Sequence record: PZ445450.1
Origin: a phage
Direction: 5' to 3' (one strand)
Length of the DNA stretch: 64,000 bases
The translations under genes were made by a program, and so were the position numbers. The first letter of the stretch is position 1, and every line of letters starts with the position of its first letter. The notes under the pieces were generated by a model that saw only the letters and a list, made by a program, of their open reading frames with translations, was not told the origin of the DNA and made no database searches. Shown here piece by piece: positions 10,773 to 23,178 of the stretch.

Positions 10773-10927
10773 AATGATAATCATTCTCGTTTGCAGAATA
10801 ACGGGCAGGCCCGGTGATTGTCTCCCGGCCCCTGTTGCCCCGGCTTGTTATTATAGTATCACACAGGACAAAGAAAGCAAGGACTTTTTGCATAAATTTT
10901 TAAATGATAATGATAACCGTTCTCATT
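10773..10927. promoter_or_regulatory. Fur-box-like palindromes next to a GC-rich hairpin element
   Basis: aatgataatcatt (10773-10785) and aatgataatgataaccgttctcatt (10903-10927) resemble the Fur box GATAATGATAATCATTATC; GC-rich elements at 10806-10846 and 10941-10980. Confidence 0.4.
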
Positions 10928-11149
10928 TTATGCAGCGCCCATCCCCGGTGGTTGTCTCCCCCGTCACCGGTGCCTGCCGTCCTTTCGATAGGTATATTGT
11001 GCCACCTGGCGGGGCCGCTGTCAACACTTTTCAAAAAATTTTTCTAACCTGATGCGCTAACCGTTGCAACCTGGCGGGGCCAGCCTGGCAGGGGGGTGAA
11101 AGCTTGCAAACCTGGTAGTAGGGTAAACAATTGAAGAGGAGGTACAAAA

Positions 11150-11323
11150 ATGAAAGGTAATGCTACTCACCTGGAGAATGTAGCGATTAATGACGCTGAG
11201 GCTATCGCCCTGGTTGAAAAGGCTATGGCGGGAGCGTTGGAACATAAAGAAGAGTACGAAAAAATGGTGGTTAACCTAGCGGGGGCGGCAGGTGGATTCT
11301 ATCATAAAAATAATTTAAAATAG
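11150..11323 (+). CDS. small hypothetical protein (57 aa)
   Basis: Strong RBS gaagaggagg 7 nt upstream; not in ORF track (under 60 aa). Confidence 0.45.
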   Translation: MKGNATHLENVAINDAEAIALVEKAMAGALEHKEEYEKMVVNLAGAAGGFYHKNNLK

Positions 11324-11326
11324 TCG

Positions 11327-11354
11327 TTGACAACAAGGTTAATCATGGTATTAT
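11327..11354 (+). promoter_or_regulatory. sigma70-like promoter (TTGACA-N16-TATTAT)
   Basis: -35 11327-11332, -10 11349-11354. Confidence 0.5.
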
Positions 11355-11404
11355 TACCCTACAAGGTGAACAACACCGCACTAACCAGTAAAGAGGATAA
11401 ATTT

Positions 11405-11602
11405 ATGAACGCATACGGGATCAAAGTACGTTGCAACACTCGCCAGGTGGTCACCAATCAAGTGATTTGCCGGGTGGATGTAACCATCAACAACGGGCAA
11501 GGCCTTTATAAATTTCGTCGCGGTCATAGCTATACCCTGCAACAGCTTAATCGTTGCGCCCTGACAAAAGGTCAGATCAACCACTGGTTTAATAAAAAAT
11601 AA
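11405..11602 (+). CDS. hypothetical protein
   Basis: aagagga RBS before internal ATG; the longer track ORF overlaps the promoter. Confidence 0.5.
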   Translation: MNAYGIKVRCNTRQVVTNQVICRVDVTINNGQGLYKFRRGHSYTLQQLNRCALTKGQINHWFNKK

Positions 11603-11605
11603 ATA

Positions 11606-11634
11606 TTGACATGTAGTCTGAAACAAAATATACT
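11606..11634 (+). promoter_or_regulatory. sigma70 promoter (TTGACA-N17-TATACT)
   Basis: -35 11606-11611, -10 11629-11634. Confidence 0.6.
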
Positions 11635-11666
11635 GAAAGCACAAAAGACACTAAGAGGATAAAATC

Positions 11667-12065
11667 ATGAAAACCACAACCTTTAATTTTGACAATGCTG
11701 ACTTCTCTTTTTCTGATGTTAAAAGCTGCCGCCGTGATCGCGGATTCTACAAGGCCTATAATCTGGTTGGCCTGGACGATGATAATAATTTGCACGAAGT
11801 AGCGGAGATCCGGTACTATGCCGCCGCCAGCGGTAACACTCACTACTGTGTATTTTGGATTCACGACAACAAGAACAATAAGTACGGTTATACTGGCGGC
11901 AAGGCGAGCGGTCACGGTTATGATAAAGCCAACGCTGCACTTGAAAGCGCATTAAGTGCCATGGGAATCACTGCCGACGGCTGGATCTATGAAGAAGAGT
12001 TTTTGGCGGCACTTGCTAACCACCTGGGCTATAAAAAGCACATTGTAACATGTGCCCACGAATAA
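11667..12065 (+). CDS. hypothetical protein
   Basis: aagaggataaaa RBS; 132-aa ORF. Confidence 0.55.
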   Translation: MKTTTFNFDNADFSFSDVKSCRRDRGFYKAYNLVGLDDDNNLHEVAEIRYYAAASGNTHYCVFWIHDNKNNKYGYTGGKASGHGYDKANAALESALSAMGITADGWIYEEEFLAALANHLGYKKHIVTCAHE

Positions 12066-12073
12066 AAAAATTA

Positions 12074-12102
12074 TTGACACGCTGCAAAATTCAAGTAAAC
12101 TA
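12074..12102 (+). promoter_or_regulatory. sigma70-like promoter (TTGACA, -10 TAAACT)
   Basis: -35 12074-12079; followed by 5' hairpin ggcggga-atgt-ttcccgcc at 12112-12130. Confidence 0.5.
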
Positions 12103-12149
12103 TACACAAAAGGCGGGAATGTTTCCCGCCAACACAAAGGAAAAAGATC

Positions 12150-12545
12150 ATGAATAAGAACGTACGCCGCATCATGAACGAACTGGCAAACGATGAAAAA
12201 ATTATTGACATGCATTTAGTCAACATTTGCCGCCGTTGTGTAACATATAACAACCGCGCCGCAAAAGCGCGTGAGATGAACGCAAAAGGCACCTTAAAGC
12301 CTTTTCAGGTGGTTGTAAAATCTATAACTAATGCAGCAGGCCAGGCGCATGACCACAACAACGAGAGCACTAATATTGATCCGTCTTACGTAATGAAACG
12401 GATCCGGACTTGCAAGAATAAAGAGCAGGTGTATAACGTCATAGATTGGCTGGACTCCCTGGGCGATGTGGTTTACAATAGGTTTTCTGCAGCCATCGAG
12501 ATCCAGCTTGACAGATTGGACGGGAAAGTACTAAAAACTTATTGA
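12150..12545 (+). CDS. hypothetical protein
   Basis: Leader caacacaaaggaaaaag then ATG; 131-aa ORF. Confidence 0.55.
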   Translation: MNKNVRRIMNELANDEKIIDMHLVNICRRCVTYNNRAAKAREMNAKGTLKPFQVVVKSITNAAGQAHDHNNESTNIDPSYVMKRIRTCKNKEQVYNVIDWLDSLGDVVYNRFSAAIEIQLDRLDGKVLKTY

Positions 12546-12547
12546 GT

Positions 12548-12591
12548 TTATTTTTAGATGGCCTTGACTCCAGGGCCATCAATAAAGTAAA
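12548..12591 (+). repeat. 44-nt intergenic element, copy 1 of 3 identical
   Basis: ttatttttagatggccttgactccagggccatcaataaagtaaa; hairpin GATGGCC/GGCCATC with TTGACT in the loop; begins 3 nt after the stop codon. Confidence 0.8.
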
Positions 12592-12625
12592 CTAACCACA
12601 ATTAAGCGGAAAAGGAGGCTTAAAG

Positions 12626-12745
12626 ATGAGCACTACACGCCAGCACACAAAGGTAACTATTATCGTTTGCATCATTGGTTACATCCTGGCGCAAATGTTG
12701 ATGGGTAGCGCCAACGGTGTAGCAAAATTTTTCTTAAACTTTTAA
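12626..12745 (+). CDS. small hydrophobic peptide (39 aa)
   Basis: aaaaggaggc RBS; sequence VTIIVCIIGYILAQMLMG. Confidence 0.4.
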   Translation: MSTTRQHTKVTIIVCIIGYILAQMLMGSANGVAKFFLNF

Positions 12746-12773
12746 TTGACAAGCTAACTTAGATCAGTATACT
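12746..12773 (+). promoter_or_regulatory. sigma70 promoter (TTGACA-N16-TATACT)
   Basis: -35 12746-12751, -10 12768-12773; 5' hairpin gggaa-aac-ttccc follows. Confidence 0.6.
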
Positions 12774-12824
12774 AAGCACATAGACGGGAAAACTTCCCCA
12801 GACACACGAAAGGAGAAAAACACC

Positions 12825-13166
12825 ATGACTACTATGACCGCCGAAGAAAAAGCCCTGCAGATCGCCGCTCTGAAAAAACAGATCGCAGACCTTGAGAATA
12901 AGATCGATAACTTTGAAATCGACGAGGACAAGTACGACGAAAACTATGATGAATGGCTAGACGAGGTTTATGGCGAAATTATGATCGGAAACATTTCTTT
13001 TCTTCCGTCGCGTATCCTCAAGGAGTTAGATCCTATCGCTTACCGCTGCGGATTTAGCGACTACATCGACAGCCTGGATATTGAGGACGATGAAGAATAC
13101 CGGGAATTACAGACAGAGTTGGAAGAAGCAAAAGAAGAGCTTGCGGAGCTGGAAGAAAACGAGTAA
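12825..13166 (+). CDS. hypothetical acidic coiled-coil protein
   Basis: aaaggagaaaaa RBS; very acidic 113-aa protein. Confidence 0.55.
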   Translation: MTTMTAEEKALQIAALKKQIADLENKIDNFEIDEDKYDENYDEWLDEVYGEIMIGNISFLPSRILKELDPIAYRCGFSDYIDSLDIEDDEEYRELQTELEEAKEELAELEENE

Positions 13167-13168
13167 GA

Positions 13169-13212
13169 TTATTTTTAGATGGCCTTGACTCCAGGGCCAT
13201 CAATAAAGTAAA
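13169..13212 (+). repeat. 44-nt intergenic element, copy 2 of 3 identical
   Basis: Identical 44-mer to 12548..12591; begins 3 nt after the stop codon. Confidence 0.8.
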
Positions 13213-13255
13213 CTTTATACTGTTAACACTGAACTAATGCATAGGAGTTAAAACC

Positions 13256-13501
13256 ATGGCAGCACTAATCACTAAATATTACGCCCCTACCAACACCAAA
13301 AGCGCCCGTATCATGGTAAAAGGCTTCGGACGTAAAAAGGTTTACACCTGGGATTATGCCTTAGACACGGAAGACAACTACACCAACGCGATGACAGATT
13401 TTATTAATGAGCTGAACACGCGGATCTTGACAAATTATAAAATTACCGATATTGCCTATATAGGGGAAGGCGGGATCTGTTTTGTCGGTATCGTCAAATA
13501 A
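13256..13501 (+). CDS. hypothetical protein
   Basis: aggag RBS; 81-aa ORF. Confidence 0.5.
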   Translation: MAALITKYYAPTNTKSARIMVKGFGRKKVYTWDYALDTEDNYTNAMTDFINELNTRILTNYKITDIAYIGEGGICFVGIVK

Positions 13502-13577
13502 ACTGTTTTTTCGGTGGTCCTGGTAGCAGGGCCATCTATAAAGATAGTTTATCAATACAATGAAAGGAGAAAGTAAC

Positions 13578-13925
13578 ATGATCAGTGGGGCAAGTTTTAT
13601 TATTGGCGCTATTGCTACGGCTTTAATTGTAAACAAGATCCAATCTAAAAACGAAAAAGAGAGCAACGCGCTCACAGAATACCCATTTTGGATATTCAAC
13701 GACAATGAAGACTACATTATCAAGTACAAGAATGAGAAGGGCGACCAGGTAACACCGCGACCGATCCCGGCCTACAAGATGCAAGAAACACTATACCGCC
13801 TAAAGGCTGGAGGCGCAAAAATCGTAGACTTTTGGGGATATGATTGCAAGGATCAGGAGGTTATAAAACGGCGTATCCGGGCTATTCAGGCCAATATTGA
13901 AGTTAGCAAGGGGGGGAATATATGA
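13578..13925 (+). CDS. hypothetical membrane-anchored protein
   Basis: aaaggagaaag RBS before second ATG; N-terminal helix ISGASFIIGAIATALIV. Confidence 0.5.
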   Translation: MISGASFIIGAIATALIVNKIQSKNEKESNALTEYPFWIFNDNEDYIIKYKNEKGDQVTPRPIPAYKMQETLYRLKAGGAKIVDFWGYDCKDQEVIKRRIRAIQANIEVSKGGNI

Positions 13926-14119
13926 AGATTAATTTTGAGAAGATTGTAAAGCGATCTCATGTTTCCGAAGAGCTGCCGGAACGACGCCAGCGTAACAATA
14001 AACTGAATAAGCCAAAAAGATTTGGAAAGATCTGGCGAAATCATTATGATCGTAAATTGCCTGGCCTACTTTTGGAACGTGAACGACAGGCAGAACGATA
14101 CCGCCATAAAGACAAATAA
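13922..14119 (+). CDS. hypothetical basic protein
   Basis: ATGA overlap; Arg/Lys-rich 65-aa ORF. Confidence 0.45.
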   Translation: MKINFEKIVKRSHVSEELPERRQRNNKLNKPKRFGKIWRNHYDRKLPGLLLERERQAERYRHKDK

Positions 14120-14127
14120 CAACCAAC

Positions 14128-14153
14128 GCCCCGCCATTGTGCGGGGCTTTTTA
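14128..14153 (+). terminator. rho-independent terminator
   Basis: gccccgc-cattgt-gcggggc then ttttta. Confidence 0.7.
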
Positions 14154-14300
14154 TTTCTATCCTACGAATAGCGCCCCTGGTTGGCCCTGTAAGCGCCAAA
14201 AAGGCCCCACCTATGCAATCGCCCCCCTTTAACCTGAAAACATCGCTTAGGGCCGTTTTATGGCGTTAAAAATATCATTGACAGTGATTTTATTTAAAGC

Positions 14301-14328
14301 TTGACATCTTAAACAGGTTAGCTATACT
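14301..14328 (+). promoter_or_regulatory. sigma70 promoter (TTGACA-N16-TATACT)
   Basis: -35 14301-14306, -10 14323-14328. Confidence 0.6.
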
Positions 14329-14360
14329 AACCACATCAAAGAGAGAAAGGAGTAAACGCC

Positions 14361-14621
14361 ATGCGTAAATTAAAAAATTTTGATAAAGTTGATGTTGTCC
14401 TGAATAATTTTTACTACTGCAACAACAAGGCCATTTGGTGGCGTGATAGTTCCACCGATAAAGTCAAGGCGCGCTTTCTCCAGGGGCACTGGCAAGGCCG
14501 CCCAGTGATTAAAATCATGGGGCAATTGGTAGCGTTTAAAAATTGCCGCCGTGTTGATGACGTTGAGGAGATTTTAAACATTTTGCGCCACAATAATTTA
14601 AAAAATAGTGTTGACAAGTAA
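14361..14621 (+). CDS. hypothetical protein
   Basis: aaggag RBS; 86-aa ORF. Confidence 0.5.
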   Translation: MRKLKNFDKVDVVLNNFYYCNNKAIWWRDSSTDKVKARFLQGHWQGRPVIKIMGQLVAFKNCRRVDDVEEILNILRHNNLKNSVDK

Positions 14622-14638
14622 ATCTCAATAAGTATAAT
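14611..14638 (+). promoter_or_regulatory. consensus sigma70 promoter (TTGACA-N16-TATAAT)
   Basis: -35 14611-14616, -10 14633-14638; 5' hairpin ggcgg-gaaaactta-ccgcc at 14649-14667. Confidence 0.65.
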
Positions 14639-14695
14639 TAAACACACAGGCGGGAAAACTTACCGCCACTAACAAAGAAAACAGGAGAAAATATC

Positions 14696-15319
14696 ATGAC
14701 CACCGTTAACATTACCACAGGTTACAATTTATCTTTCGACGTGCTGACCGACGAACAAAAAGAAAAAGCCATTGAAATGGTACGCGAAAGAGAAGAACAC
14801 AGCGGGGATGACTTTTTTGCAGAAAGTGTAATTGAACACTACAAAGAATATATCTTTCCAGAGTACGGCCTTGAAGATACCGAAGTACATTGGTCCGGCT
14901 TTTGGTGCCAGGGTGACGGCGCGTCAATCAGTGCTGAAAACGTGGATTTAGAAAAATTTTTGCGTAAAGTAAAGGCCCTGACCAAGTTCCGATCAATTCG
15001 TCACTTGTTCGGCACAATGCACGATGGCGAGTTATCAGCCAGTGTTGAACGCGACAAGTACAGCCATTACAGCCATGAAAACACTGTAAGCGGATACATT
15101 GATACCACCTGGCTAGATCTGACCGCCAAACAAGAAAACAAAGTGGAAGACCTGGAAGAGCTGATCACCGAGACGGTACGGGAGCTATCCCGCAAGGTTT
15201 ACGTAGACCTGGAGGAGGCCTATCTAGAACAGTTCACTACCGAAAACCTGATCGGCCTTATTGAGGCCAATGATTGGCGGTTTGATGTGGATGAATATGG
15301 AGAGATGAGTTTTTCATAA
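14696..15319 (+). CDS. hypothetical acidic protein (207 aa)
   Basis: Leader ctaacaaagaaaacaggagaaaat then ATG; largest protein of the cassette array. Confidence 0.55.
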   Translation: MTTVNITTGYNLSFDVLTDEQKEKAIEMVREREEHSGDDFFAESVIEHYKEYIFPEYGLEDTEVHWSGFWCQGDGASISAENVDLEKFLRKVKALTKFRSIRHLFGTMHDGELSASVERDKYSHYSHENTVSGYIDTTWLDLTAKQENKVEDLEELITETVRELSRKVYVDLEEAYLEQFTTENLIGLIEANDWRFDVDEYGEMSFS

Positions 15320-15327
15320 ATAAAGTG

Positions 15328-15355
15328 TTGCAATAATCTAAAAACCTGCTATATT
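15328..15355 (+). promoter_or_regulatory. sigma70-like promoter (TTGCAA-N16-TATATT)
   Basis: 5' hairpin ggggcaa-gacg-tttgcccc at 15365-15384 follows. Confidence 0.5.
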
Positions 15356-15408
15356 AAAACTCAAGGGGGCAAGACGTTTGCCCCACACAAAACAAAGAGG
15401 AAAACATT

Positions 15409-15789
15409 ATGAAAAACACTACTAAAGCTATTGACACCGTTATGTTTAACCTGGTTACCTTTCGCGAGGATATGAAAGATCTTCCACGTGAAACAGTGTG
15501 CGATCACATTGAAAACTATCGCAAACTAATCAAAGAGTTGCCTTTAAAACGTGACCAGTATGCGGCTAACGCTATGCTCAACGCCATGATCAAAAAGATG
15601 ATTCAGTGTGATTTAACCCTGGCCTATGATTATGCAGGTGGTCGTTTTGCAGTATACAATCAGCCCGTGCCTGGTATGGGCACCACTGAAGAATTGCACG
15701 CGCTCAATCTAAAACAAGACGTGTGGGATAGTATGCCCCGCGTGGTGGTGTGGGCAGAAAGCGGAAAGATTTACGGCGATAATTTTTAA
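15409..15789 (+). CDS. hypothetical protein
   Basis: cacaaaacaaagaggaaaac leader; 126-aa ORF. Confidence 0.55.
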   Translation: MKNTTKAIDTVMFNLVTFREDMKDLPRETVCDHIENYRKLIKELPLKRDQYAANAMLNAMIKKMIQCDLTLAYDYAGGRFAVYNQPVPGMGTTEELHALNLKQDVWDSMPRVVVWAESGKIYGDNF

Positions 15790-15853
15790 TCAGGTAACAG
15801 GCGGCATATTTGCCGCCTTATTGTTAAACAGAACTGCAAAAGAGGTACATAGA

Positions 15854-16225
15854 ATGGAATTTATTATTTTGGCCGTATTAGTTGCCTTGTTTAACGCCTG
15901 GATCGCTGGCAAGATGGGTAGATCCGCCTTTTTATGGTTTATTATATCTATTTTCCTGGGGGTGGTTGCAACTATTGTACTTGTTATCCTTGCAATTGTT
16001 GACAAAGGCGATAATAGAAAGGGTAAAGTATTTTCCGACCTGTATGACGCGCAAACATTTGTCAACGCCTATTATAGTGATCTTCCAGTCTCCCTACGCT
16101 GCAGCCTTGCACAACAGGTTTTCGATGAAGCTAAAACCAGAGATCACGCCCATGAGATTTGTTTAACTGAGGCGGATCGCCTATTTGAGAGGAATAGAAA
16201 ATATGTGGGCCAGCCGTTTAAATAA
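15854..16225 (+). CDS. hypothetical membrane protein (2 predicted TM helices)
   Basis: aaagaggtac RBS before internal ATG; IILAVLVALFNAWIAG and FLWFIISIFLGVVATIVLVILAIV. Confidence 0.5.
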   Translation: MEFIILAVLVALFNAWIAGKMGRSAFLWFIISIFLGVVATIVLVILAIVDKGDNRKGKVFSDLYDAQTFVNAYYSDLPVSLRCSLAQQVFDEAKTRDHAHEICLTEADRLFERNRKYVGQPFK

Positions 16226-16448
16226 TACCACGTTAATTAATCCCTTTGATGAAGATTTGAAGCCAGCCGCCTGGCGTGATGGATTCAATAACGAACGCTT
16301 TATTTTCAGGCCTGATCTTAAGGAATTTTATAACAATGGATCGAACAACGACAGAGATAATTTTTCTTGTGATGTGCGTGGTGATGGTACTCCTGGGGGC
16401 CATTGTAAACCACGTCACTACTACCAGGATGAAAGGGGGAGACGATGA
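16203..16448 (+). CDS. hypothetical protein
   Basis: gagagg RBS; its stop forms an ATGA overlap with the next ORF, supporting this frame. Confidence 0.4.
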   Translation: MWASRLNNTTLINPFDEDLKPAAWRDGFNNERFIFRPDLKEFYNNGSNNDRDNFSCDVRGDGTPGGHCKPRHYYQDERGRR

Positions 16449-16564
16449 CAACCAAGGATAAGCCCCGCACCGATAAGGTGCGCCGGGTTATGGTATGGCT
16501 TGAGATCATCGCCCTTGAAATATTGTTAGGCGTAGGGATGTATTTTATCGCTGTAAGTAACTGA
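16445..16564 (+). CDS. small membrane peptide (39 aa)
   Basis: aagggggagacg RBS; WLEIIALEILLGVGMYFIAV. Confidence 0.4.
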   Translation: MTTKDKPRTDKVRRVMVWLEIIALEILLGVGMYFIAVSN

Positions 16565-16568
16565 TAAC

Positions 16569-16598
16569 GGCCCCCGATCCCTGGGGGCCTAACTTTTT
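16569..16598 (+). terminator. rho-independent terminator
   Basis: ggccccc-gatccct-gggggcc followed by taacttttt. Confidence 0.65.
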
Positions 16599-16621
16599 CA
16601 AAAAATTTTTCTTCCGGGGTG

Positions 16622-16650
16622 TTGCAATCCGGTCCGAAATATGGATAATA
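16622..16650 (+). promoter_or_regulatory. sigma70-like promoter (TTGCAA-N17-ATAATA)
   Basis: Followed by 5' hairpin gggga-gctaa-tcccc at 16663-16677. Confidence 0.5.
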
Positions 16651-16708
16651 ATAATAATCAACGGGGAGCTAATCCCCACCAACACAAAAACCAGAAAGGA
16701 GAAACAAA

Positions 16709-16909
16709 ATGAGCAACAATATCCGCGTTATTAACTTCAAAAAAGAAGAAAAAATTGCCGTGCTGATTGACGGTCAAGAAATCTTCAAGGGCGACTATGA
16801 AGATCATCAAACGGCGATTAGTATCACTCGCGTGATTGGTTACCATAATTTTTACCCCCAAGGCGCTGAGGCAGCTGTTAAACGAATCAAAGAGATTGTA
16901 GGCCTGTAA
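16709..16909 (+). CDS. hypothetical protein
   Basis: Leader ccaacacaaaaaccagaaaggagaaac then ATG. Confidence 0.55.
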   Translation: MSNNIRVINFKKEEKIAVLIDGQEIFKGDYEDHQTAISITRVIGYHNFYPQGAEAAVKRIKEIVGL

Positions 16910-16912
16910 AAT

Positions 16913-16956: not shown

Positions 16957-16993
16957 TTTAAACCCTGTTAAAATACCACGCAGTTAACAAGGA

Positions 16994-17302
16994 GTGATAG
17001 ACATGTTTATCCAGGCTAATAATCTTTATTTCTTTGATGGTCAGATCGTAGACGGCGTGGAAGTAGAGATCACCGGGTGCCCTGGCGGTCAGGTTATGAC
17101 TTTTCGGAATAATGCCTTTGATGATTCTCATATCGTTATGAGAATGGAAGTTAGTAAGCTGGACGATAAGAAAACACTCATTGATTATTCCGTGAAAGAT
17201 CATCCAGACTACCACATGATCTATGGCGATTTGTGCATTGTTGACCGTGACAAGGTGAACGGCATTGTGATCGCTATTGTGAACGATGTTTTCTCAAACT
17301 AG
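16994..17302 (+). CDS. hypothetical protein
   Basis: aacaaggagtgatagac RBS. Confidence 0.55.
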   Translation: MIDMFIQANNLYFFDGQIVDGVEVEITGCPGGQVMTFRNNAFDDSHIVMRMEVSKLDDKKTLIDYSVKDHPDYHMIYGDLCIVDRDKVNGIVIAIVNDVFSN

Positions 17303-17319
17303 TTTCAGCAGGTTATTTT

Positions 17320-17670
17320 ATGAAAGTAAAACTATATTACCTTAATGAGCTTAACCCCCTTGCCCAGGTCCGCGCCCTGGCTAATACCTTGATTTGTGAG
17401 AAATCTGTATATTGTGTTGAGATTAACGCCATGCGTGAACGTCTCAAAGGTGGTTACTTTGACATCCATGCTGCAATCAACGGCCTGAATATGGAATTTA
17501 TCCGCTTACGTAACAGCCGCCAGAGTCTGGCAAGAATGGAACAAGATCCGGCCCACCTTCGTAAGCTGGTTATTGAAAACCATCTGATGTTCAATGCCGA
17601 TGGCGATTATTACCATTTTCACCGTAAACGCTGGTACCGTAGCGGCAATATAGGAAATAATGCAAAATAA
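17320..17670 (+). CDS. hypothetical protein
   Basis: 116-aa ORF; weak RBS. Confidence 0.45.
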   Translation: MKVKLYYLNELNPLAQVRALANTLICEKSVYCVEINAMRERLKGGYFDIHAAINGLNMEFIRLRNSRQSLARMEQDPAHLRKLVIENHLMFNADGDYYHFHRKRWYRSGNIGNNAK

Positions 17671-17707
17671 GGCCCCCGGCAGGGCCTACAGCGATATAAT
17701 CATCTAA

Positions 17708-17739
17708 AGGCTATGCAACCGCATGGCCTTTATTATTTT
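17708..17739 (+). terminator. rho-independent terminator
   Basis: aggctatgc-aacc-gcatggcct then ttattatttt. Confidence 0.6.
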
Positions 17740-17871
17740 GGCGTTACAGCGGCCCCAAGGCGCTTAAAAATTTTTTTAAAGAAGTGCTTGCATCAAGTCC
17801 TACAATATGGATAATAGGACGTGTCAGGGGGCGGCCCCCAATCATTAACCGGATAGATAGGAGTTAAAACT

Positions 17872-18156
17872 ATGGCTATTGTTACCGTTGGCGATGTAGT
17901 AGAAATGGAAGCCAAATACTTAAAAGCGGGTATGCATATCCTACGCAACGATCTTGAGCTAGTCCTGACAATGGTCGACTATAATCCCGGCCAGGATTAT
18001 CCAAGCATCGACTACTTTTTTGAGTATGTTGATGAAGAGCTAAAAGAAGACGAAGCCTATTGCGGTGAATTTTGCAACTTCTTTTGCCCTGATGAGGTTG
18101 TAAAAGTTATCTATCAACCTGGCGTACCTTTCCCGTTGCACGCCATCAATAAATAA
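17872..18156 (+). CDS. hypothetical acidic protein
   Basis: Promoter-like TTGCAT with 5' hairpin ggggg-cgg-ccccc at 17827-17839; aggag RBS. Confidence 0.5.
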   Translation: MAIVTVGDVVEMEAKYLKAGMHILRNDLELVLTMVDYNPGQDYPSIDYFFEYVDEELKEDEAYCGEFCNFFCPDEVVKVIYQPGVPFPLHAINK

Positions 18157-18218
18157 GCCTAGCGGGGCCGAAAAGGCCCCTCCTGAAATTATGAAAAAAT
18201 AAAGAGGGGTAAATCATC

Positions 18219-18455
18219 ATGATTGAACAAATTAAAAGCACTAAACCGAACGTTAACGGCAATGTTTCTCACTTTATTGGTGATAATGAAAGAGGGACAC
18301 CGTACGCTGCGGTAACAGTTCAACCGAACGGGGATTATTGGTTTACTGTATACGGATCTTATTCTTTTGGGCGTCCGGTGCATGATAGAATTTTAAAAGT
18401 AGCTAATCCGACCGGGAAGAATATCACAGCAGAAAAATTTTTTGAAAATAGTTGA
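18219..18455 (+). CDS. hypothetical protein
   Basis: aaagagggg RBS. Confidence 0.5.
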   Translation: MIEQIKSTKPNVNGNVSHFIGDNERGTPYAAVTVQPNGDYWFTVYGSYSFGRPVHDRILKVANPTGKNITAEKFFENS

Positions 18456-18479
18456 CATGACCGTATAAGACTGTAGTAT
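18452..18479 (+). promoter_or_regulatory. sigma70 promoter (TTGACA-N16-TAGTAT)
   Basis: 5' hairpin ggggc-aa-gcccc at 18490-18502, then ccaaccacaaagaggataaaaatc. Confidence 0.55.
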
Positions 18480-18527
18480 ATAAATCAAAGGGGGCAAGCC
18501 CCACCAACCACAAAGAGGATAAAAATC

Positions 18528-18707
18528 ATGGCTATTATTGCAAAGACCGAGATTGTAGGGTTAGATTCTATTCTCCTGGCATATGAGGAAGCTATAGAAA
18601 TGTATGTGGTTTCCTACGGTGAGTATATCCGTGAATATAAATCTGTTGATCTAGCTTTTGAATGTTATATTCGCCAGGTCAATAAAGCATATGATGATTA
18701 TCGTTAA
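18528..18707 (+). CDS. small hypothetical protein (59 aa)
   Basis: Full promoter-hairpin-RBS cassette upstream; below ORF-track size cut-off. Confidence 0.5.
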   Translation: MAIIAKTEIVGLDSILLAYEEAIEMYVVSYGEYIREYKSVDLAFECYIRQVNKAYDDYR

Positions 18708-18713
18708 AATAGT

Positions 18714-18741
18714 TTGACAACAATTATAAATCGGGTAGAAT
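18714..18741 (+). promoter_or_regulatory. sigma70 promoter (TTGACA-N16-TAGAAT)
   Basis: -35 18714-18719; 5' hairpin ggcggca-atga-tgccgct follows. Confidence 0.55.
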
Positions 18742-18792
18742 GTATTTCGTAGGGCGGCAATGATGCCGCTCACAACTAGAAGAGGGGTCATC

Positions 18793-18987
18793 ATGGCGCT
18801 TAAAAAACTAACAAGCAATACTCGTTGGGATGAAATCGACGGGGAAGTTTACATTTTCGCCCGTAAACCAGGGGATCAAAAATGGTCAAAGGCTTTTACT
18901 TGCCACCCTGCAACAATAGACCTGATAAAAAGGGAAGGTCTACGTGAAGCAGTATCAAGAAGCCTACTGATCCCTTGTAAAAAATAG
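18793..18987 (+). CDS. hypothetical protein
   Basis: agaagagggg RBS before internal ATG. Confidence 0.5.
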   Translation: MALKKLTSNTRWDEIDGEVYIFARKPGDQKWSKAFTCHPATIDLIKREGLREAVSRSLLIPCKK

Positions 18988-19068
18988 TTGGACAATACGC
19001 GGTTACCTGGTAAAGTGTACGACATAGGGCGGGGCAATAAGGCAACGCCCATTAATGAGGGTGGAATC

Positions 19069-19173
19069 ATGTTAGAGAAAATTTTCACGGTTGTAGTAGT
19101 GGGCCTGGCGTTATCGGTTGGAGTAGTTGCAACTATGGCTAACATGATCCTATCTTCCCACGGTATTGGATAA
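19069..19173 (+). CDS. small membrane peptide (34 aa)
   Basis: aatgagggtgg RBS; IFTVVVVGLALSVGVVATMANMIL. Confidence 0.4.
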   Translation: MLEKIFTVVVVGLALSVGVVATMANMILSSHGIG

Positions 19174-19183
19174 GGTGAATCAA

Positions 19184-19399
19184 ATGATCACGAATAAAAC
19201 AGGTAAAACAGAATTTTTACGCGGCTTGCAGATCGGCAAGCCTGAGATCTGGTATTGCACTAAAACACCACGTGACGAAATGAAAGACTTCACCGCCACG
19301 CTACAACGGGTAAAGATATCCATCACACAGAAAAAGGCCTTGATAGTGGTGGAAGGTGAGATCCCCCAAGCCGTTGTTATAGTTGAGCGTACAGCATAG
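19184..19399 (+). CDS. hypothetical protein
   Basis: aaggtg RBS before second ATG. Confidence 0.45.
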   Translation: MITNKTGKTEFLRGLQIGKPEIWYCTKTPRDEMKDFTATLQRVKISITQKKALIVVEGEIPQAVVIVERTA

Positions 19400-19488
19400 T
19401 TTAATCTATACCGTACACCCCATTAACTAACAAAGCATAAACAGGCGGCGGTGACCGCCTTAAACGCAACAGAAAGAGGATAGACACA

Positions 19489-19773
19489 ATGAAAAAGATG
19501 ATCGCAGTGGTTGCCCTGGTTGTTGGACTTAATGCGCCTGCAATGGCTAAAGAGCTGGCAAAAGAGGTAGATCTAACTGATATCCATGCCGTCAATCAAA
19601 TCGGGGTTACTTATCGCTTATGCCTTGCCGCTAAAACTTTTAAGGACGGCACTACAGAGTACTACGGATTCGAGGGCGTCCGGTGCGGTGAACTTGCTCG
19701 CGACCTTAAAGAAGATCCAGACCTGGAGGATCTGCCGATAACCGTAAACGGGAAAACTTACGTGAACCGTTAA
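19489..19773 (+). CDS. hypothetical secreted/periplasmic protein with signal peptide
   Basis: MKKMIAVVALVVGLNAPAMA then K; aaagagga RBS; 5' hairpin ggcgg-cggtga-ccgcc at 19444-19459. Confidence 0.55.
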   Translation: MKKMIAVVALVVGLNAPAMAKELAKEVDLTDIHAVNQIGVTYRLCLAAKTFKDGTTEYYGFEGVRCGELARDLKEDPDLEDLPITVNGKTYVNR

Positions 19774-19775
19774 CC

Positions 19776-19910
19776 ATGAGAAAGATAATTATTACCATAG
19801 GGATCGTGGCGGCAATGTTGGCGATCTTTCCCCTTATGGTTAGGTATGTGCTGATCAGTGTTGTCCTGGTAGTCAGCGATCTAATGTTATATATTAACTC
19901 ATTGTTTTAG
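19776..19910 (+). CDS. small membrane peptide (44 aa)
   Basis: Hydrophobic ORF IIITIGIVAAMLAIFPL...VLISVVLVV; weak RBS. Confidence 0.3.
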   Translation: MRKIIITIGIVAAMLAIFPLMVRYVLISVVLVVSDLMLYINSLF

Positions 19911-19918
19911 GTGGAATA

Positions 19919-20110
19919 ATGACAGCAGAAGAAGTTAAAAAAGTACTGGCAGTACTACGTTACCATAATCATTGCAAGGTGAAGAATGATCCTGATTATC
20001 TCGATTCATCCCTTGAAGAGGATACACTGCAAGCCATAAGCAACATGCAAGAATTGCTTAAGCGTATGACAGAGAAAAACCGACCGGACTATATAGGCGA
20101 AAAAATATAA
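19919..20110 (+). CDS. hypothetical protein
   Basis: aggtgg RBS; 63-aa ORF. Confidence 0.45.
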   Translation: MTAEEVKKVLAVLRYHNHCKVKNDPDYLDSSLEEDTLQAISNMQELLKRMTEKNRPDYIGEKI

Positions 20111-20126
20111 TCTTTATAAACCATAA

Positions 20127-20156
20127 AACAGGGCTTGTAATGGTCCTGTTTTTTGT
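20127..20156 (+). terminator. rho-independent terminator
   Basis: aacagggc ... gtcctgtt stem followed by ttttttg. Confidence 0.55.
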
Positions 20157-20170
20157 TATACTTATTTCAC

Positions 20171-20217
20171 GGCAGGCACCTGGCGACGGGGGGAGACAAT
20201 CACCGGGGGTGCCTGTC
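20171..20217. repeat. GC-rich element, inverted copy of the element at 10941..10980
   Basis: Reverse complement reads ccccggtgattgtctcccccc...ggtgcctgcc, matching 10941-10980 and, partly, 10806-10846. Confidence 0.7.
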
Positions 20218-20239
20218 ATATAAAAAACTATAAAAACCG

Positions 20240-20268
20240 TTGACACCTGCCAGGCGGTGGGGTAACAT
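20240..20268 (+). promoter_or_regulatory. sigma70-like promoter (TTGACA-N17-TAACAT)
   Basis: -35 20240-20245, -10 20263-20268. Confidence 0.5.
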
Positions 20269-20322
20269 TTATCTTGAAGGGGCAAAAGTGCTCACACAAC
20301 AACCAGAAGAGAGGAAAACGCC

Positions 20323-20595
20323 ATGTTAAGCTGGATTAACCAAGAAGTCGAATCACGTTTTAATACTATTTAGGATCTCATCGAAAAAGAGGACGGAACA
20401 TCAAGCCCTTATCTCAATAATCTTGAATTCCATTTCGTGGAAGCGATGAACGCAGAACATGATCACGAAGGTGGTGCGGACGAGTTCGCTAAAGGGTATG
20501 GCTTCAACAATGCCAACGAAATGATCGAGGCGGTTGTACTCCAGGCTGAGGAAGATTATCAATTAAAAACGCTTGAATTCTGCCGCCGTAAGTAA
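20323..20595 (+). pseudogene. cassette gene interrupted by an in-frame amber (TAG) codon at 20371-20373
   Basis: Promoter, CA-rich leader and agaagagaggaaaacgcc RBS precede ATG 20323; codon 17 is TAG, after which the same frame stays open for 73 more codons to TAA at 20593-20595. Confidence 0.45.
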
Positions 20596-20657
20596 TAAGA
20601 TAATGACACGGGCCAAAAGGCCCACTAATCAGAACCGCACAAAAAGAGAGAAAGAAA

Positions 20658-20876
20658 ATGGCAACCCGTAAAATTAAAGTTGTTTGCATTGAATCAACTG
20701 GTAGCGCTTTTGTAGTTGGTCAGAAATATAATGCGGTTTTAATGGGTACGGATTGGAAGGTTAAAGGCCTTGATGGTTACGAATACGGCACTACTCGGGG
20801 ATTGCGTGGTCGAATCGGATACGTGAGTTTTGACAACAAAGAAAAATTTGTTTTCGATATTGTTGTGAGTAAATAG
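20658..20876 (+). CDS. hypothetical protein
   Basis: 5' hairpin gggcc-aaaa-ggccc, leader cacaaaaagagagaaagaaa then ATG. Confidence 0.5.
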   Translation: MATRKIKVVCIESTGSAFVVGQKYNAVLMGTDWKVKGLDGYEYGTTRGLRGRIGYVSFDNKEKFVFDIVVSK

Positions 20877-20932
20877 CAATTCATGCTATATTATCAACTA
20901 ATCAAAACGAACCGCATAAAGAGGAAAACATC

Positions 20933-21196
20933 ATGAAACGTCTTGACCAGCTCAAACTAGTTCAGTACATGGCTTACAGAATTCTTGAAGTCCAAAAAGG
21001 TAGCAAAAAAGAAGTTTGCGAGAAAGCGTACAAGATCTTTACTCGCAAAAAAGACGATTGGATGTTACGCCAGACCAAAAAAGCCGATATCTTGGGGTAC
21101 CTGGAAGAAGAGATCCGGCTTGAAGAACAAGAAGAGATCCGCCGTAGTGAGGCAGATTATCAGGCAGCTTGGGAAAACTGGATGAGCAACAAATAA
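20933..21196 (+). CDS. hypothetical charged protein
   Basis: aaagaggaaaac RBS. Confidence 0.5.
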   Translation: MKRLDQLKLVQYMAYRILEVQKGSKKEVCEKAYKIFTRKKDDWMLRQTKKADILGYLEEEIRLEEQEEIRRSEADYQAAWENWMSNK

Positions 21197-21262
21197 TACA
21201 ACAGGTTGCATGGTCAGGGGCGATAAAGCCCCTTGATCACATAAAAATTATGCTATCCCTTG

Positions 21263-21291
21263 TTGACAGGGATCGGCAGTTTTGCTATATT
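21263..21291 (+). promoter_or_regulatory. sigma70 promoter (TTGACA-N17-TATATT)
   Basis: -35 21263-21268, -10 21286-21291. Confidence 0.55.
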
Positions 21292-21340
21292 CTTTTTTGA
21301 AGGGAAGTTGTAAGAAAATTAACTAAGAGGTAAAAACACC

Positions 21341-21760
21341 ATGAACATTAAATCTGATAATCCGGCATATAGCTTTGATAACGCTTTTTGTCACGGTCCG
21401 GCGGCGAAAGGATTCGAAATCGATGGTAAACTAATTATTGTCAATGTTGACGGGGAAGAGGTTGCAGTATATCCGGTGGCAGACGTTAAAAGCCGTCTAC
21501 AATGCCGCATAGATGTTACCGCCTATCAGCTTGATCCGGTCCGGGTAGTTGCCCTGGTCCTGGAAGAAGAAATTAAAGCAATGCACCACAGCAACAAGTT
21601 TATTGGTGACGCTCAAGATAATATGCAGGTATGCCGCTATAAAGTTAATGAAGTGCTTAAAGAGTACGGCTATAAGGATTTAATGATCAAGCGCGATGAA
21701 AAATTCCGCTACCGTAACAACCTGGCAAATCGGATTTTTGAAATATACGAATCATTATAA
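21341..21760 (+). CDS. hypothetical protein
   Basis: aagaggtaaaaac RBS; last gene of plus-strand block. Confidence 0.55.
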   Translation: MNIKSDNPAYSFDNAFCHGPAAKGFEIDGKLIIVNVDGEEVAVYPVADVKSRLQCRIDVTAYQLDPVRVVALVLEEEIKAMHHSNKFIGDAQDNMQVCRYKVNEVLKEYGYKDLMIKRDEKFRYRNNLANRIFEIYESL

Positions 21761-21780
21761 TTTCTTAACTGAATTATCAA

Positions 21781-21806
21781 GGGGCTTAAAGGCCCCTTTC
21801 TTTTTG
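21781..21806 (+). terminator. rho-independent terminator
   Basis: ggggc-ttaaag-gcccc followed by tttctttttg. Confidence 0.7.
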
Positions 21807-22421
21807 TCTGCTCTTCTCCTACCATAAACGGCCCTACCTGGCAAGTGGAATAATTGACTAGCCATCAATCCCACATACTGTACAAATATACATGGAAAAT
21901 AACTATTGCATAATCTTTCATTGTGCGGTAGCAGGGCCATTTTTACCCGTTTTCTCTCCCAAAAGTGCACGTAATGCCGCTATTGCACAAATTTTAACCT
22001 GATGCACATATCCAATATCTTGTCAACAACTAAAAATCTTTATAAGTCATACACTTATACAGCATCGAAAGCGTGTTCTACGTGAAAAATCGAGTATAAC
22101 TATAGCCGCCAGATCTCAGAATTCACGTACGCACGCCATTCTATAGCCTGCAAAGTATTTATTCCAACCACAGAATAACGGAATAGTCAATACCTGCATA
22201 AAATAATTATTCGTGTAAACTGCATAACATAAATCAGCTCAGGTGTCAACATTTTTCGTAAACAGTCCGAAATTATCACGATGAGTTATCATAAACAGAG
22301 AAATCTTTAGTCGTCTAATGTTTACTGTACATTACTATACTGACTGGAATCATTAGATGACTAAGAAAAAGATAAGAAATAATTAATAATGTAATTGTTT
22401 TATCTGTAACAATAAGGCAAC

Positions 22422-22700
22422 CATGCAAACGAATGTCATGGCGCGACGGAGTCGCGACATAATATAAAAGCAGTAACCATCACCCCCGTGATAGTTTGTC
22501 TGCAATCTATTATTCAGATCATAGTTGCCTTGTATTTAGTTAATCATGACATAACAAGCAAGGCAACTATAGCTCTGATAATAGTTGCCCTGCTTTTATA
22601 TTATGTCATAGATTGTTAGCTTGTTAACTGTCAGCCTGTTGGCTGTTAGCTTGTCAATTATTAAATTGCTAATCTTTATCATGCAAACGAATGTCATGGC
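22422..22700. repeat. Composite repeat locus: 21-bp direct repeats flanking nested inverted repeats
   Basis: catgcaaacgaatgtcatggc at 22422-22442 and 22680-22700; 18-bp inverted repeat gacataatataaaagcag (22456-22473) / ctgcttttatattatgtc (22580-22597); inner palindromes cgcgac/gtcgcg and atagttgccttg/caaggcaactat. Confidence 0.8.
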
Positions 22701-22711
22701 TTATCATCTCT

Positions 22712-22767
22712 GTGTAAACAGTTTGGGCGTAAACTATTCAGGCGTAAACAGTCTATGCGTAAACAGT
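22712..22767. repeat. Four tandem iterons with 15-bp period (G[CT]GTAAAC[AT][AG]T)
   Basis: gtgtaaacagt, gcgtaaactat, gcgtaaacagt, gcgtaaacagt at 15-bp spacing; tgttagcttgt/tgtcagcctgt repeats sit just upstream and tgtgtc repeats downstream. Confidence 0.8.
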
Positions 22768-23141
22768 GAGATATGGAATAGTAACAGCCGTTATTGTGTC
22801 ATATTGTGTGACATTGTGTCCGGTGTCTGGTGTCCAGTGTGTCAGACAAGTTTTTCTCCTCTTTGTCAAGTGCTGCATGAAAAATTTACAAACTGGTATG
22901 GTAGCATTTTTGCGGCCCTGTTTACATTCAGTTGTGTATGTATAACCCTTGTTGTGTGGGCGTTTAGACGTCTAGACGGTTGGAAGTCTGCAGGTCAATA
23001 TCTAATCTATCGGCTGCTAACTATATCCCACACAAATAGTAAGAAATATAATTGTTATGTGCGTAAACAGTAACTCATGTTATCAATCCCTGTATGTATC
23101 GCCAGTGGTGCGCATAATGGGTATTATGTTAAATTGCCCGT

Positions 23142-23178
23142 AATGATAATGGTTCTCACAATGATAGGTATTCTCATT
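23142..23178. promoter_or_regulatory. Fur-box-like palindromic motifs
   Basis: aatgataatggttctcacaatgataggtattctcatt; same motif family as 10773 and 10903. Confidence 0.35.

Follow-up and report, generated by a model that had tools for sequence, protein, structure and literature searches.

The stretch of DNA analysed here (64 kb, referred to as the window) comes from an rV5-like Vequintavirus, a strictly lytic coliphage, and near-perfect Fur-type boxes were found clustered in two of its non-coding control regions, one of which lies inside the terminal repeat. The box sequences are indistinguishable from the strongest E. coli Fur sites, with two being better, and the box arrays are under selection across several phage genera. 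With moderate confidence, the palindromes can be read from their sequence as genuine host Fur operators, at which bound Fur-Fe would gate non-coding transcription. As the boxes are conserved across related genera, rV5-like phages probably read or manipulate host iron status. This reading is partly supported by four independent computations: scoring with an E. coli matrix, unseeded motif discovery, the use of the same sequence at bacterial iron genes, and conservation across genera.

Fur-type boxes in the window

The palindromic unit is 19 bp long, AATGA(T/G)AA-N3-TTCTCATT, and is in the register of the Fur 7-1-7 box. The following boxes were identified and are listed with no strand.

10744..10762, no strand, distal, weak Fur-like box AATGCGAGGAGTTCTCATT, scoring 11.4 bits on the E. 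coli Fur matrix
10773..10791, no strand, strong Fur box AATGATAATCATTCTCGTT, 23.2 bits
10903..10921, no strand, overlapping Fur box AATGATAATGATAACCGTT, 15.0 bits
10909..10927, no strand, strong Fur box AATGATAACCGTTCTCATT, 23.3 bits, the top match in the window
23142..23160, no strand, Fur box AATGATAATGGTTCTCACA, 15.2 bits
23160..23178, no strand, Fur box AATGATAGGTATTCTCATT, 14.8 bits
23276..23294, no strand, weak Fur-like box AATGAGAAGTATTCCCATT, 9.7 bits, one mismatch to the refined pattern

The initial annotation had named three Fur-like palindromes (the boxes at 10773 and 10909, and a third site whose first half is the box at 23142), and all three strings were found in their places. Its estimate of a match at roughly 15 of 19 positions was fair, as the site at 10906 has 3 mismatches to the classical Fur 19-mer and direct reading gave 4-5 at the other sites. 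The weight-matrix scoring that it had proposed put two boxes on top, at 23.3 and 23.2 bits, and three more at about 15 bits; the palindromes are real and stronger than had been claimed. By matrix score, the phage boxes match the Fur 19-bp inverted repeat GATAATGATAATCATTATC and its 7-1-7 form TGATAATnATTATCA.

A set of 13 Fur-regulated promoters of E. coli K-12 served to learn the matrix de novo; these promoters themselves score 12.3-22.5 bits, so that boxes 10909 and 10773 exceed every training site. None of 100 Markov shuffles reached 18 bits, and a shuffle had on average 0.24 sites of 14 bits or more. Outside both clusters only one match in the window scored at least 14 bits (at 21744, the end of a coding ORF), and no non-coding site elsewhere in the 64 kb reached 14 bits with the E. 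coli matrix. In 448 kb of unrelated viral contigs, there were 3 matches of at least 14 bits and 1 of at least 18 bits. In word counts, AATGATAAT occurs 4 times in the window against 1.26 expected, and AATGAKA-N4-TTCTCA with up to 2 mismatches 18 times against 5.3 expected, a count reached by 0 of 100 shuffles. Matches to the refined pattern with 0-1 mismatch are found exclusively in 10744-10927 (region 1) and 23142-23294 (region 2).

In region 1, box 10744 starts 29 bp upstream of the start of box 10773, a spacing that recurs in relatives, and most of the recovered related copies of the GAATRRCGGGCA element are preceded, at a distance of exactly 4 nt, by the orthologue of box 10773. Box 10909, which is kept in Gotham, EdH4, L173 and L219, is overlapped by box 10903 at an offset of 6 bp, the hexamer register typical for extended Fur sites. 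In region 2, boxes 23142 and 23160 abut each other (18 bp start to start) and are annotated merely as 'repeat_region' in the naswa record. Among six rV5-like genomes, box 23142 varies mostly at three central, Fur-tolerant bases, box 23160 has a single substitution (A to G at the second base, in rV5) and box 23276 is unchanged. The region-2 boxes score just 10-15 bits, which counts against Fur, and this region is too conserved among rV5-like phages for footprinting.

The same palindrome at iron genes of bacteria

The E. coli sites of ryhB (AATAATAATCATTCTCATT), fecI (AATGATAACCATTCTCATA) and fhuA (TATAATAATCATTCTCGTT) differ from the phage boxes at 1-3 positions. The Fur-repressed promoters of ryhB, fhuA, fecI and exbB carry the same 19-bp palindrome in the same register as the phage, and the fhuA promoter shares an unbroken 16 nt, ATAATCATTCTCGTTT, with window positions 10777-10792.

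The exact phage family consensus, AATGAGAATCATTCTCATT, was found in more than 120 bacterial contigs from diverse bacteria of many phyla. Among the 120 occurrences taken, 112 were intergenic and 86 lay within 200 bp upstream of an ORF. TonB-dependent receptors made up 7 of the 20 downstream ORFs that were scanned, which also included an FTR1 iron permease, two ZnuA-type binding proteins, an SBP_bac_6 protein and an ABC ATPase. By this context, with its enrichment for TonB-dependent receptors, FTR1 and metal ABC components, the sequence is used in bacteria as an operator of iron-uptake genes.

Conservation in related phages

Related phages of at least six genera keep arrays of 1-5 boxes with a usual spacing of 29 bp. 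All relatives examined (phAPEC8, CR8, KaOmega, POP18, CB7/phiTE, ChuuTotoro, BIS47, a Salmonella phage and IMG/VR contigs) carry boxes of 15-26 bits, commonly 29 bp apart, and some have extra strong boxes at further loci. The motif is retained across genera where flanking identity is 70%, with the Fur-informative positions conserved and the Fur-tolerant positions variable. Motif discovery in 15 phage lineages, which was neither seeded nor constrained to palindromes, returned GAATGA(G/T)AATCATTCTCAT, correlating with the Fur matrix at r = 0.91.

TGATAA and TGAGAA are the commonest half-sites in the E. coli-trained matrix, and the phage boxes use the same alternatives. The two half-sites swap them independently, positions 6 and 14 being symmetric in 24 of 60 unique boxes against 30.9 expected, and there was no pairing covariation between half-sites among these 60 boxes. 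Independent variation of this kind agrees with recognition of double-stranded DNA by a dimeric protein, but not with a hairpin. The right half-site of promoter-proximal boxes is almost always TTCTCA, with C at a frequency of 0.97 compared to 0.23 in E. coli sites; across all unique boxes this C is found in 36 of 60. The preference could reflect a slightly different binder.

GC-rich elements and promoters beside the boxes

Three copies of a GC-rich element and predicted promoters were located around the region-1 boxes and at one further locus.

10796..10846, minus strand, GC-rich element copy a (GAATAACGGGCA-N5-GGTGATTGTCTCC...), core 70-87% identical in DNA across genera
10932..10985, minus strand, GC-rich element copy b, with GGTGGTTGTCTCC at 10947-10959, one mismatch to the core 13-mer
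20135..20222, plus strand (opposite to copies a and b), GC-rich element copy c, with the exact 13-mer GGAGACAATCACC at 20192
10850..10880, minus strand, sigma-70 promoter P_rev(a), -35 TTGCTT (10880-10875), -10 TACTAT (10858-10853), extended TG
10996..11024, minus strand, promoter P_rev(b), TTGACA-17-CACAAT, extended TG, 13.7 bits
10770..10799, plus strand, candidate weak promoter under box 10773, TTGAAT-18-CAGAAT, 8.3 bits

The initial annotation had placed two of its sites just upstream of GC-rich hairpins. The placement holds (boxes 10773 and 10909), but the elements are better described as a conserved sequence without significant structure. Within lineages, copy a forms a modest hairpin with AGACAAnCA in the loop; the consensus fold reached only -2.8 kcal/mol with 4 pairs in RNAalifold, and single-sequence fold z-scores for copies a, b and their orthologues (+0.65 to -1.33) were not significant. 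No Rfam family matches the element. A structured non-coding RNA or an intrinsic terminator was therefore rejected, with no significant or covarying structure being found. Copy a is interpreted as a 5' leader on a minus-strand transcript, and copy b aligns with the b-type copies of Certrevirus contigs. Copy c folds well (z = -3.9) and has its own upstream promoter, TTGTAA-16-TATACT (11.9 bits), without a Fur box. An antitoxin-mimic RNA locus of the pseudo-ToxI type known from phage phiTE was also rejected, since the 36-nt ToxI repeat had no match at up to 9 substitutions in the phiTE, CB7, CR8 and POP18 loci or in the window.

Of the promoters, those on the minus strand have the best support, and they are conserved. 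A promoter match is present at the P_rev(a) position in 15 of 15 lineages (8.7-9.0 bits in the window), and the invariant alignment columns are the TTG of the -35 and T-12, A-11 and T-7 of the -10. P_rev(b), which two separate promoter scans picked up, fires into element b and box 10909; at 13 bits or more there are only 49 promoter sites on both strands of the window. The plus-strand candidate matches 8 of 12 consensus positions and is found in 8 of 15 lineages, with the A at -11 not conserved. As transcription from the minus-strand promoters runs through the element and on into the boxes, which are at about +55 to +120, the boxes are mostly downstream of a promoter and not classically over one. 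In region 2, boxes overlap weak candidate promoters in both directions.

This geometry is unusual for Fur, and so is the 29-bp phasing, compared with the 6-bp hexamer phasing usual in Fur regulons. E. coli host genes have one or two boxes over the -35/-10, such as the ryhB box at -24 to -6, whereas the phage has 29-bp-phased arrays, mostly downstream of the best promoter, flanking non-coding DNA and not an iron gene.

Terminal repeat and repeat-rich DNA

22845..23303, no strand, counterpart of the direct terminal repeat (459 bp) found in phage Gotham, holding all three region-2 boxes
10473..10668, no strand, three tandem iteron-like repeats of 57 nt, spaced by 65 and 74

Positions 1-459 of Gotham are identical to its positions 136567-137025 and map to the window at 95.4%; rV5-like similarity drops sharply just beyond 23315. 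The region-2 boxes are 9-160 bp from the terminal-repeat boundary, or genome end, with box 23276 lying 9 bp inside it. The third site of the initial annotation falls inside this repeat, a placement absent from that annotation. Counting the second repeat copy, a genome has ten boxes, seven of which are in the window.

The iteron-like repeats are immediately upstream of the region-1 boxes, within a non-coding stretch of about 1 kb in which the local ORFs have no codon-phase bias, and direct reading found similar repeats in CR8 and phiTE. Both non-coding regions, of about 1 kb and about 2.5 kb, are rich in direct repeats.

A possible role for host Fur and the alternatives

If the boxes are Fur operators, iron-loaded Fur dimers would be expected to bind along the arrays in a cooperative manner. 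Conserved leftward sigma-70 promoters lie about 55-120 nt upstream of the region-1 arrays and would transcribe the conserved G-rich leader first; in about half of the lineages, the arrays additionally cover a weak rightward promoter. With this arrangement, Fur bound when iron is plentiful would block or occlude non-coding transcription over the repeat-rich region of about 1 kb, and under iron scarcity the transcription would be released. The downstream effect could be antisense control of early genes, replication priming, or something else.

A phage-encoded dimeric DNA-binding protein, such as a replication initiator, an early repressor or a terminase small subunit, could read the palindromes instead, with the likeness to Fur being convergent or incidental. 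The regular 29-bp arrays beside iteron-like repeats, the closeness of boxes to the terminal-repeat boundary, the near-invariant TTCTCA half-site and the adjacent small genes, none with a known function, would all suit such a protein. In addition, when the V5-like phage LL12 was screened on the Keio collection, the required genes were LPS genes only, and fur was not reported (PMC7229145), so Fur is not essential for plating in rich medium. We nevertheless regard this explanation as unlikely because the motif is in Fur register at both half-sites and outscores native E. coli sites, its alternatives are the two commonest Fur half-sites, and the identical 19-mer stands upstream of iron-uptake genes in many bacterial phyla. 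Searching 50,697 phage records by tblastn, with Fur of E. coli as the query, gave 34 matches, with none in the Vequintavirinae or the phAPEC8 group. An operator for a phage-encoded Fur-family regulator was rejected on this ground, and a non-homologous binder would have to copy Fur specificity exactly. Less probable still are AT-rich palindromes arising by chance, or RNA hairpins or terminators with no protein partner; the region is AT-rich, each box could form a short AU-rich stem and weak terminator-like features are nearby, but the shuffles, the nearly empty background DNA, the conservation across genera at 70% flanking identity and the absent covariation between half-sites effectively refute this.

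Two further explanations give the boxes a different task, and both appear improbable. Replicated boxes might soak up Fur and derepress host iron uptake and RyhB, and the iron gained would supply phage enzymes such as ribonucleotide reductase. Multicopy Fur boxes do titrate Fur in vivo, which is the basis of the FURTA assay, where high-affinity boxes on a multicopy replicon sequester the protein; that is a laboratory artefact used as an assay, whereas the decoy role in the phage is a candidate. Arrayed boxes stronger than native sites, their duplication in the terminal repeat and the further strong boxes at other loci of relatives agree with titration. However, the count per genome is modest, and the placement of the proximal box is fixed with respect to the conserved element and promoters, which suggests that it acts locally in cis. 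The other explanation makes the regions replication or packaging hubs: there would be an origin primed by an R-loop and, in the terminal repeat, a site recognised by terminase, and the palindromes would be architectural, with or without Fur, and not transcriptional switches. The large non-coding regions full of direct repeats and the box 9 bp from the repeat boundary are in keeping with this, and by direct reading the RNA fired from the promoters is G-rich, is copied from a C-rich template and heads toward AT-rich DNA, an arrangement that resembles the R-loop origins of ColE1 and T4. Element copy c has no boxes, though, and for the exact palindrome a regulatory setting has been demonstrated in bacteria, both of which speak against a hub. 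Host Fur operators remain the reading we favour.

Comparison with known systems and significance

Host Fur boxes are likewise present on the DNA of temperate phages. The stx1 gene on Shiga-toxin phages is Fur-regulated cargo. The same applies to sitABCD on lambdoid phages (PMC6969025). These are accessory or virulence genes of prophages, integrated in the host regulon, whereas in this phage the boxes are in core non-coding control regions and the terminal repeat, and are conserved across the Vequintavirinae and the phAPEC8 group. Fur boxes go unmentioned in the genome papers of rV5 and CB7, and a full-text literature search for Fur together with Vequintavirinae or rV5 gave nothing relevant; Fur boxes are known for prophage cargo genes, and no report was found of them in core control regions of lytic phages. 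The GC-rich element is also reminiscent of promoter-proximal, cis-acting leader RNAs of phages, such as the put sites of HK022, being a conserved element of about 45 nt that follows a sigma-70 start by a few nt and has three copies per phage genome, but this is an analogy only, with no sequence or Rfam similarity and no significant structure here.

From the sequences, it may tentatively be proposed that a strictly lytic lineage (Vequintavirinae and the phAPEC8 group) has recruited host Fur, either for iron-dependent early non-coding transcription or as a Fur sponge, through arrays of super-consensus operators at an internal hub of promoters and leaders and in the terminal repeat beside the DNA end, although we consider this rather doubtful. 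If true, iron state would set the timing of replication or the antisense control of early genes via early non-coding transcription; in the sponge version, host iron uptake would be derepressed to the benefit of the phage. The boxes are the first feature assigned to two large non-coding regions left without explanation in the published descriptions of these genomes, and they offer a simple example, open to testing, of how a virulent phage may read a metabolic regulator of its host. The rV5-like phages are broad-host-range candidates for therapy and biocontrol, with uses in the gut and on food, both settings in which iron is limiting. A step dependent on iron or Fur would, if real, affect their efficacy and could be engineered.

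Results

Genomic context and occurrence of the palindrome

More than 100 Escherichia phages of the rV5-like group (Vequintavirus) share 92-97% identity with the 10000-14000 stretch of the window, vB_EcoM_Gotham being the best match. The plus strand carries small early genes from the window start to 21760, and the minus strand larger genes between about 24300 and 58600. The two blocks are separated by a 2.5-kb non-coding stretch, which was drawn merely as a grey 'non-coding' box in the rV5 genome paper, with Fur unmentioned (PMC3606486). In a cluster of seven tRNA genes, one ARAGORN call, at 62555-62653, is a 99-nt tRNA whose anticodon has four bases (atcc); its Rfam score barely exceeds the tRNA threshold.

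The initial annotation had pointed to three palindromes resembling the host Fur box, and all three strings were found at 10773, 10903 and 23142. The actual unit is a 19-bp palindrome, AATGA(T/G)AA-N3-TTCTCATT, with seven occurrences in two clusters:

10744, 10773, 10903 and 10909: region 1 boxes, non-coding, upstream of the gene at 11150
23142, 23160 and 23276: region 2 boxes, in the large non-coding stretch

The palindrome pattern was enriched: 5.3 matches were expected and 18 were found, a count that no shuffle reached, and every match with 0-1 mismatches falls within the two clusters.

Comparison with E. coli Fur sites

A Fur matrix was trained by an EM motif search, seeded with each 19-mer of the first four regions, on 13 intergenic regions of Fur-regulated E. 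coli K-12 operons (fepA-fes, fepD-entS, fepB-entC, fhuA, fur, fiu, cirA, ryhB, fecI, tonB, exbB, fhuE and fhuF). The resulting motif, AATGATAATCATTATCATT, is the classical Fur box with a three-base shift, in identical register with the phage palindrome, and G is the second most frequent base at its position 6 (0.23). The matrix scoring that the initial annotation had proposed gave 23.3 bits for the box at 10909 and 23.2 bits for 10773, compared with 12.3-22.5 bits for the top site in each of the 13 training promoters. The boxes at 23142, 10903 and 23160 scored 15.2, 15.0 and 14.8 bits, and those at 10744 and 23276 were weaker (11.4 and 9.7 bits). A score of 18 bits was reached in none of 100 Markov shuffles of the window, and 448 kb of unrelated viral contigs, used as a control, contained three sites of at least 14 bits and one of at least 18 bits. 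The early note of Fur-box-like palindromes was therefore borne out by position, enrichment and matrix scores.

Outside the two clusters, the 64 kb contained a single site above 14 bits. This lone 14.2-bit site (TATACGAATCATTATAATT, 21744-21762) lies at the 3' terminus of the final gene on the plus strand and is probably due to chance. Window 10777-10792 and the Fur box of the E. coli K-12 fhuA promoter have an identical stretch of 16 nt, ATAATCATTCTCGTTT, which may be mere shared constraint. A Zur box was rejected by direct comparison, as about 10 of 19 positions fit the Zur consensus and 17 of 19 fit that of Fur.

Two further tests did not depend on which promoters were used for training. In the first, one genome per bacterial species was searched for exact matches to AATGAGAATCATTCTCATT, the family consensus in distant relatives, and at least 120 bacterial contigs contained it, where we estimated a handful by chance. 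Among the matches listed, 112 of 120 were intergenic and 86 of 120 lay no more than 200 bp upstream of an ORF. When 20 downstream ORFs, taken by distance and length alone, were scanned with Pfam, seven were TonB-dependent receptors, and an FTR1 iron permease, two ZnuA-type metal-binding proteins, an SBP_bac_6 protein and an ABC ATPase were also present. In the second test, an unseeded, non-palindromic motif search covered, for 15 phage lineages, the 150 bp preceding the conserved element; the motif obtained, GAATGA(G/T)AATCATTCTCAT, correlated with the E. coli Fur matrix at r = 0.91. By sequence-level tests of membership, the window sites belong to the Fur-box family, and at this level the reading of the palindromes as Fur boxes is strongly supported.

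Conservation of the boxes across genera

In a sensitive search with 10700-11150, only 10737-10830, which comprises boxes and the beginning of the GC-rich element, was recognisable in other genera, at 70-87% DNA identity. These included Phapecoctavirus, Mydovirus and Certrevirus, a Salmonella phage of uncertain classification, and phages of Serratia, Pectobacterium, Klebsiella, Cronobacter and Enterobacter. Across eleven loci and 23 IMG/VR contigs, relatives carried one to five boxes each, scoring 15-26 bits and usually spaced 29 bp from start to start, with the exception of W70, where the top box reached just 9.3 bits. The boxes vary in detail by lineage while their scores stay high, and in most copies the final box ends exactly 4 nt ahead of a conserved GAATRRCGGGCA-N5-GGTGNTTGTCTC element. 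Among 60 unique boxes, the half-sites toggle independently between TGATAA and TGAGAA (24 symmetric boxes against 30.9 expected), as predicted for a dimeric protein on duplex DNA and unlike a hairpin. Region 2 is about 95% identical in six rV5-like genomes, and the variation in box 23142 is mainly in the three central bases, which Fur tolerates.

The GC-rich element and its promoters

The GC-rich hairpins of the initial annotation did not hold up as structures, as RNAalifold on 22 sequences gave four pairs and -2.8 kcal/mol. Folded singly, copies a and b and their orthologues did no better than shuffles, copy c being the exception, and Rfam returned only tRNAs and noise at gathering thresholds across the window and at permissive thresholds in both regions. 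The conserved feature of the element is its primary sequence; folds within lineages gave a modest stem with AGACAAnCA in the loop. A complement search with the element core identified a third, inverted copy without a Fur box (copy c, 20170-20222), with an exact 13-mer at 20192. The idea of an sRNA seed, GGUGAUUGUCUCC, pairing with a ribosome-binding site was dropped, since its exact complement at 20192 is this inverted copy and not a target. A link to the phiTE pseudo-ToxI locus was sought and none was found.

The copies at 10796-10846 (a), 10932-10985 (b) and 20170-20222 (c) share the core GGTGNTTGTCTCC, and in the G-rich sense each directly follows a sigma-70 promoter. The direction of copies a and b is opposite to that of the early genes, and copy c is co-directional with them. 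Within several lineages, the 4-5 bases 3' of GCA alternate between CCCC and GGNC.

Promoters of the three element copies
10880-10875 (TTGCTT) and 10858-10853 (TACTAT), minus strand: copy a; position-weight scan and cross-genus alignment
11024-10996, minus strand: copy b; TTGACA-17-CACAAT, 13.7 bits, also in the built-in scan
20135-20162, plus strand: copy c; TTGTAA-16-TATACT, 11.9 bits

In all 15 lineages, the position-weight scan placed a minus-strand sigma-70 promoter 59-64 nt rightward of the element anchor, with scores of 8.5-13. The columns invariant across genera are the TTG of the -35 and T-12, A-11 and T-7 of the -10, which is the signature of a genuine promoter. By these positions, the unit begins with the promoter, followed by the G-rich leader; copies a and b then have Fur boxes, which lie between about +55 and +120. 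Beyond the boxes, the leftward path enters a repeat-rich stretch with three tandem 57-nt units (10473-10668). Eight of the 15 lineages have a weak plus-strand promoter, TTGAAT-18-CAGAAT (10770-10799), in which the key -11 A is unconserved; the built-in scan did not return it because its 8 of 12 consensus matches are under the threshold of the tool. Where this promoter is present, the proximal box would occlude it in the classical manner. The region 2 boxes are overlapped by weak candidate promoters alone (8.2-9.3 bits).

Region 2 and the terminal repeat

Gotham has an exact 459-bp direct terminal repeat (1-459 = 136567-137025), which corresponds to window 22845-23303 at 95.4% identity. All three region 2 boxes lie within this equivalent, the last (23276-23294) ending 9 bp from its boundary, so they would be doubled in the virion, near a DNA end. 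Similarity among rV5-like phages falls sharply about 12 bp beyond 23303, on entering a variable GC-rich stretch.

Other repeats were seen nearby. CTCTTCAGG has eight copies, all on the plus strand, against 0.4 expected (23421-24608, plus 37009, 43642 and 44509), five of them clustered in non-coding DNA immediately outside the terminal repeat, and a Certrevirus contig has a similar CCCTTCAGG in its corresponding region. The 22300-23070 stretch contains GCGTAAACAG-type repeats (22712-22766 and 23061), runs of CATTGTGT and GTTAGCTTGT, and inverted ATAGTTGCC arms at about 22505-22586.

Coding potential of region 1

A 92-aa ORF at 10774-11052, annotated as a CDS in Gotham and with its own PHROG family, covers Fur boxes and both GC-rich elements. 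A coding explanation was rejected, as this ORF and those at 10236-10415 (minus strand) and 10277-10438 (plus strand) are without codon-phase bias, and the cross-genus alignments of region 1 contain indels that are not multiples of three. The PHROG matches arise solely because close relatives annotate the same ORFs, and the ORF at 10774-11052 is very probably no gene. The apparently non-coding 10170-10740 stretch is rich in repeats, with several AAAATGGATTT motifs beside the tandem 57-nt units; it looks iteron-like, and analogous GGTCTCGATCG...GTATTCTC repeats occur in CR8 and phiTE. In phAPEC8 (1819-2085 of the fetched sequence) and at the equivalent position in CB7 and phiTE, which belong to other genera, a small minus-strand gene lies directly to the right of the element region; its 88-aa product (motif LGWQGGTVHQV) belongs to phrog_19316, of unknown function, and the gene is absent from the rV5-like window.

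Discussion

When 50,697 phage records were searched by tblastn with E. coli Fur, none from Vequintavirinae or the phAPEC8 group matched, and the small genes near the boxes were assigned solely to families of unknown function. Host Fur would therefore be the simplest ligand of the predicted sites. A phage protein non-homologous to Fur may bind the boxes instead. In a Keio screen with the V5-like phage LL12, the only genes required were LPS genes (PMC7229145), indicating that Fur is not essential in rich medium, which is more in keeping with a repressor or modulator than with a structural factor that the phage could not do without.

The nearest precedents for host Fur at these sites are Fur-repressed promoters of the host and the Fur boxes that precede cargo genes of prophages, for example sitABCD (PMC6969025). 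Unlike these, the boxes here belong to phages with a lytic lifestyle, have non-coding targets, form 29-bp arrays, lie mostly downstream of the promoter and include a copy in the terminal repeat. No description of such arrays in these phages was found in the searchable literature, which also yielded no usable transcriptomes of rV5-like phages.

Based on the predicted sites, a mechanism coupling these phages to iron is plausible. Host Fur with iron would occupy the box arrays, where it could be a roadblock for non-coding transcripts heading leftward and, in the lineages that have one, occlude the weak rightward promoter. Transcription of the repeat-rich region could thereby become dependent on iron.
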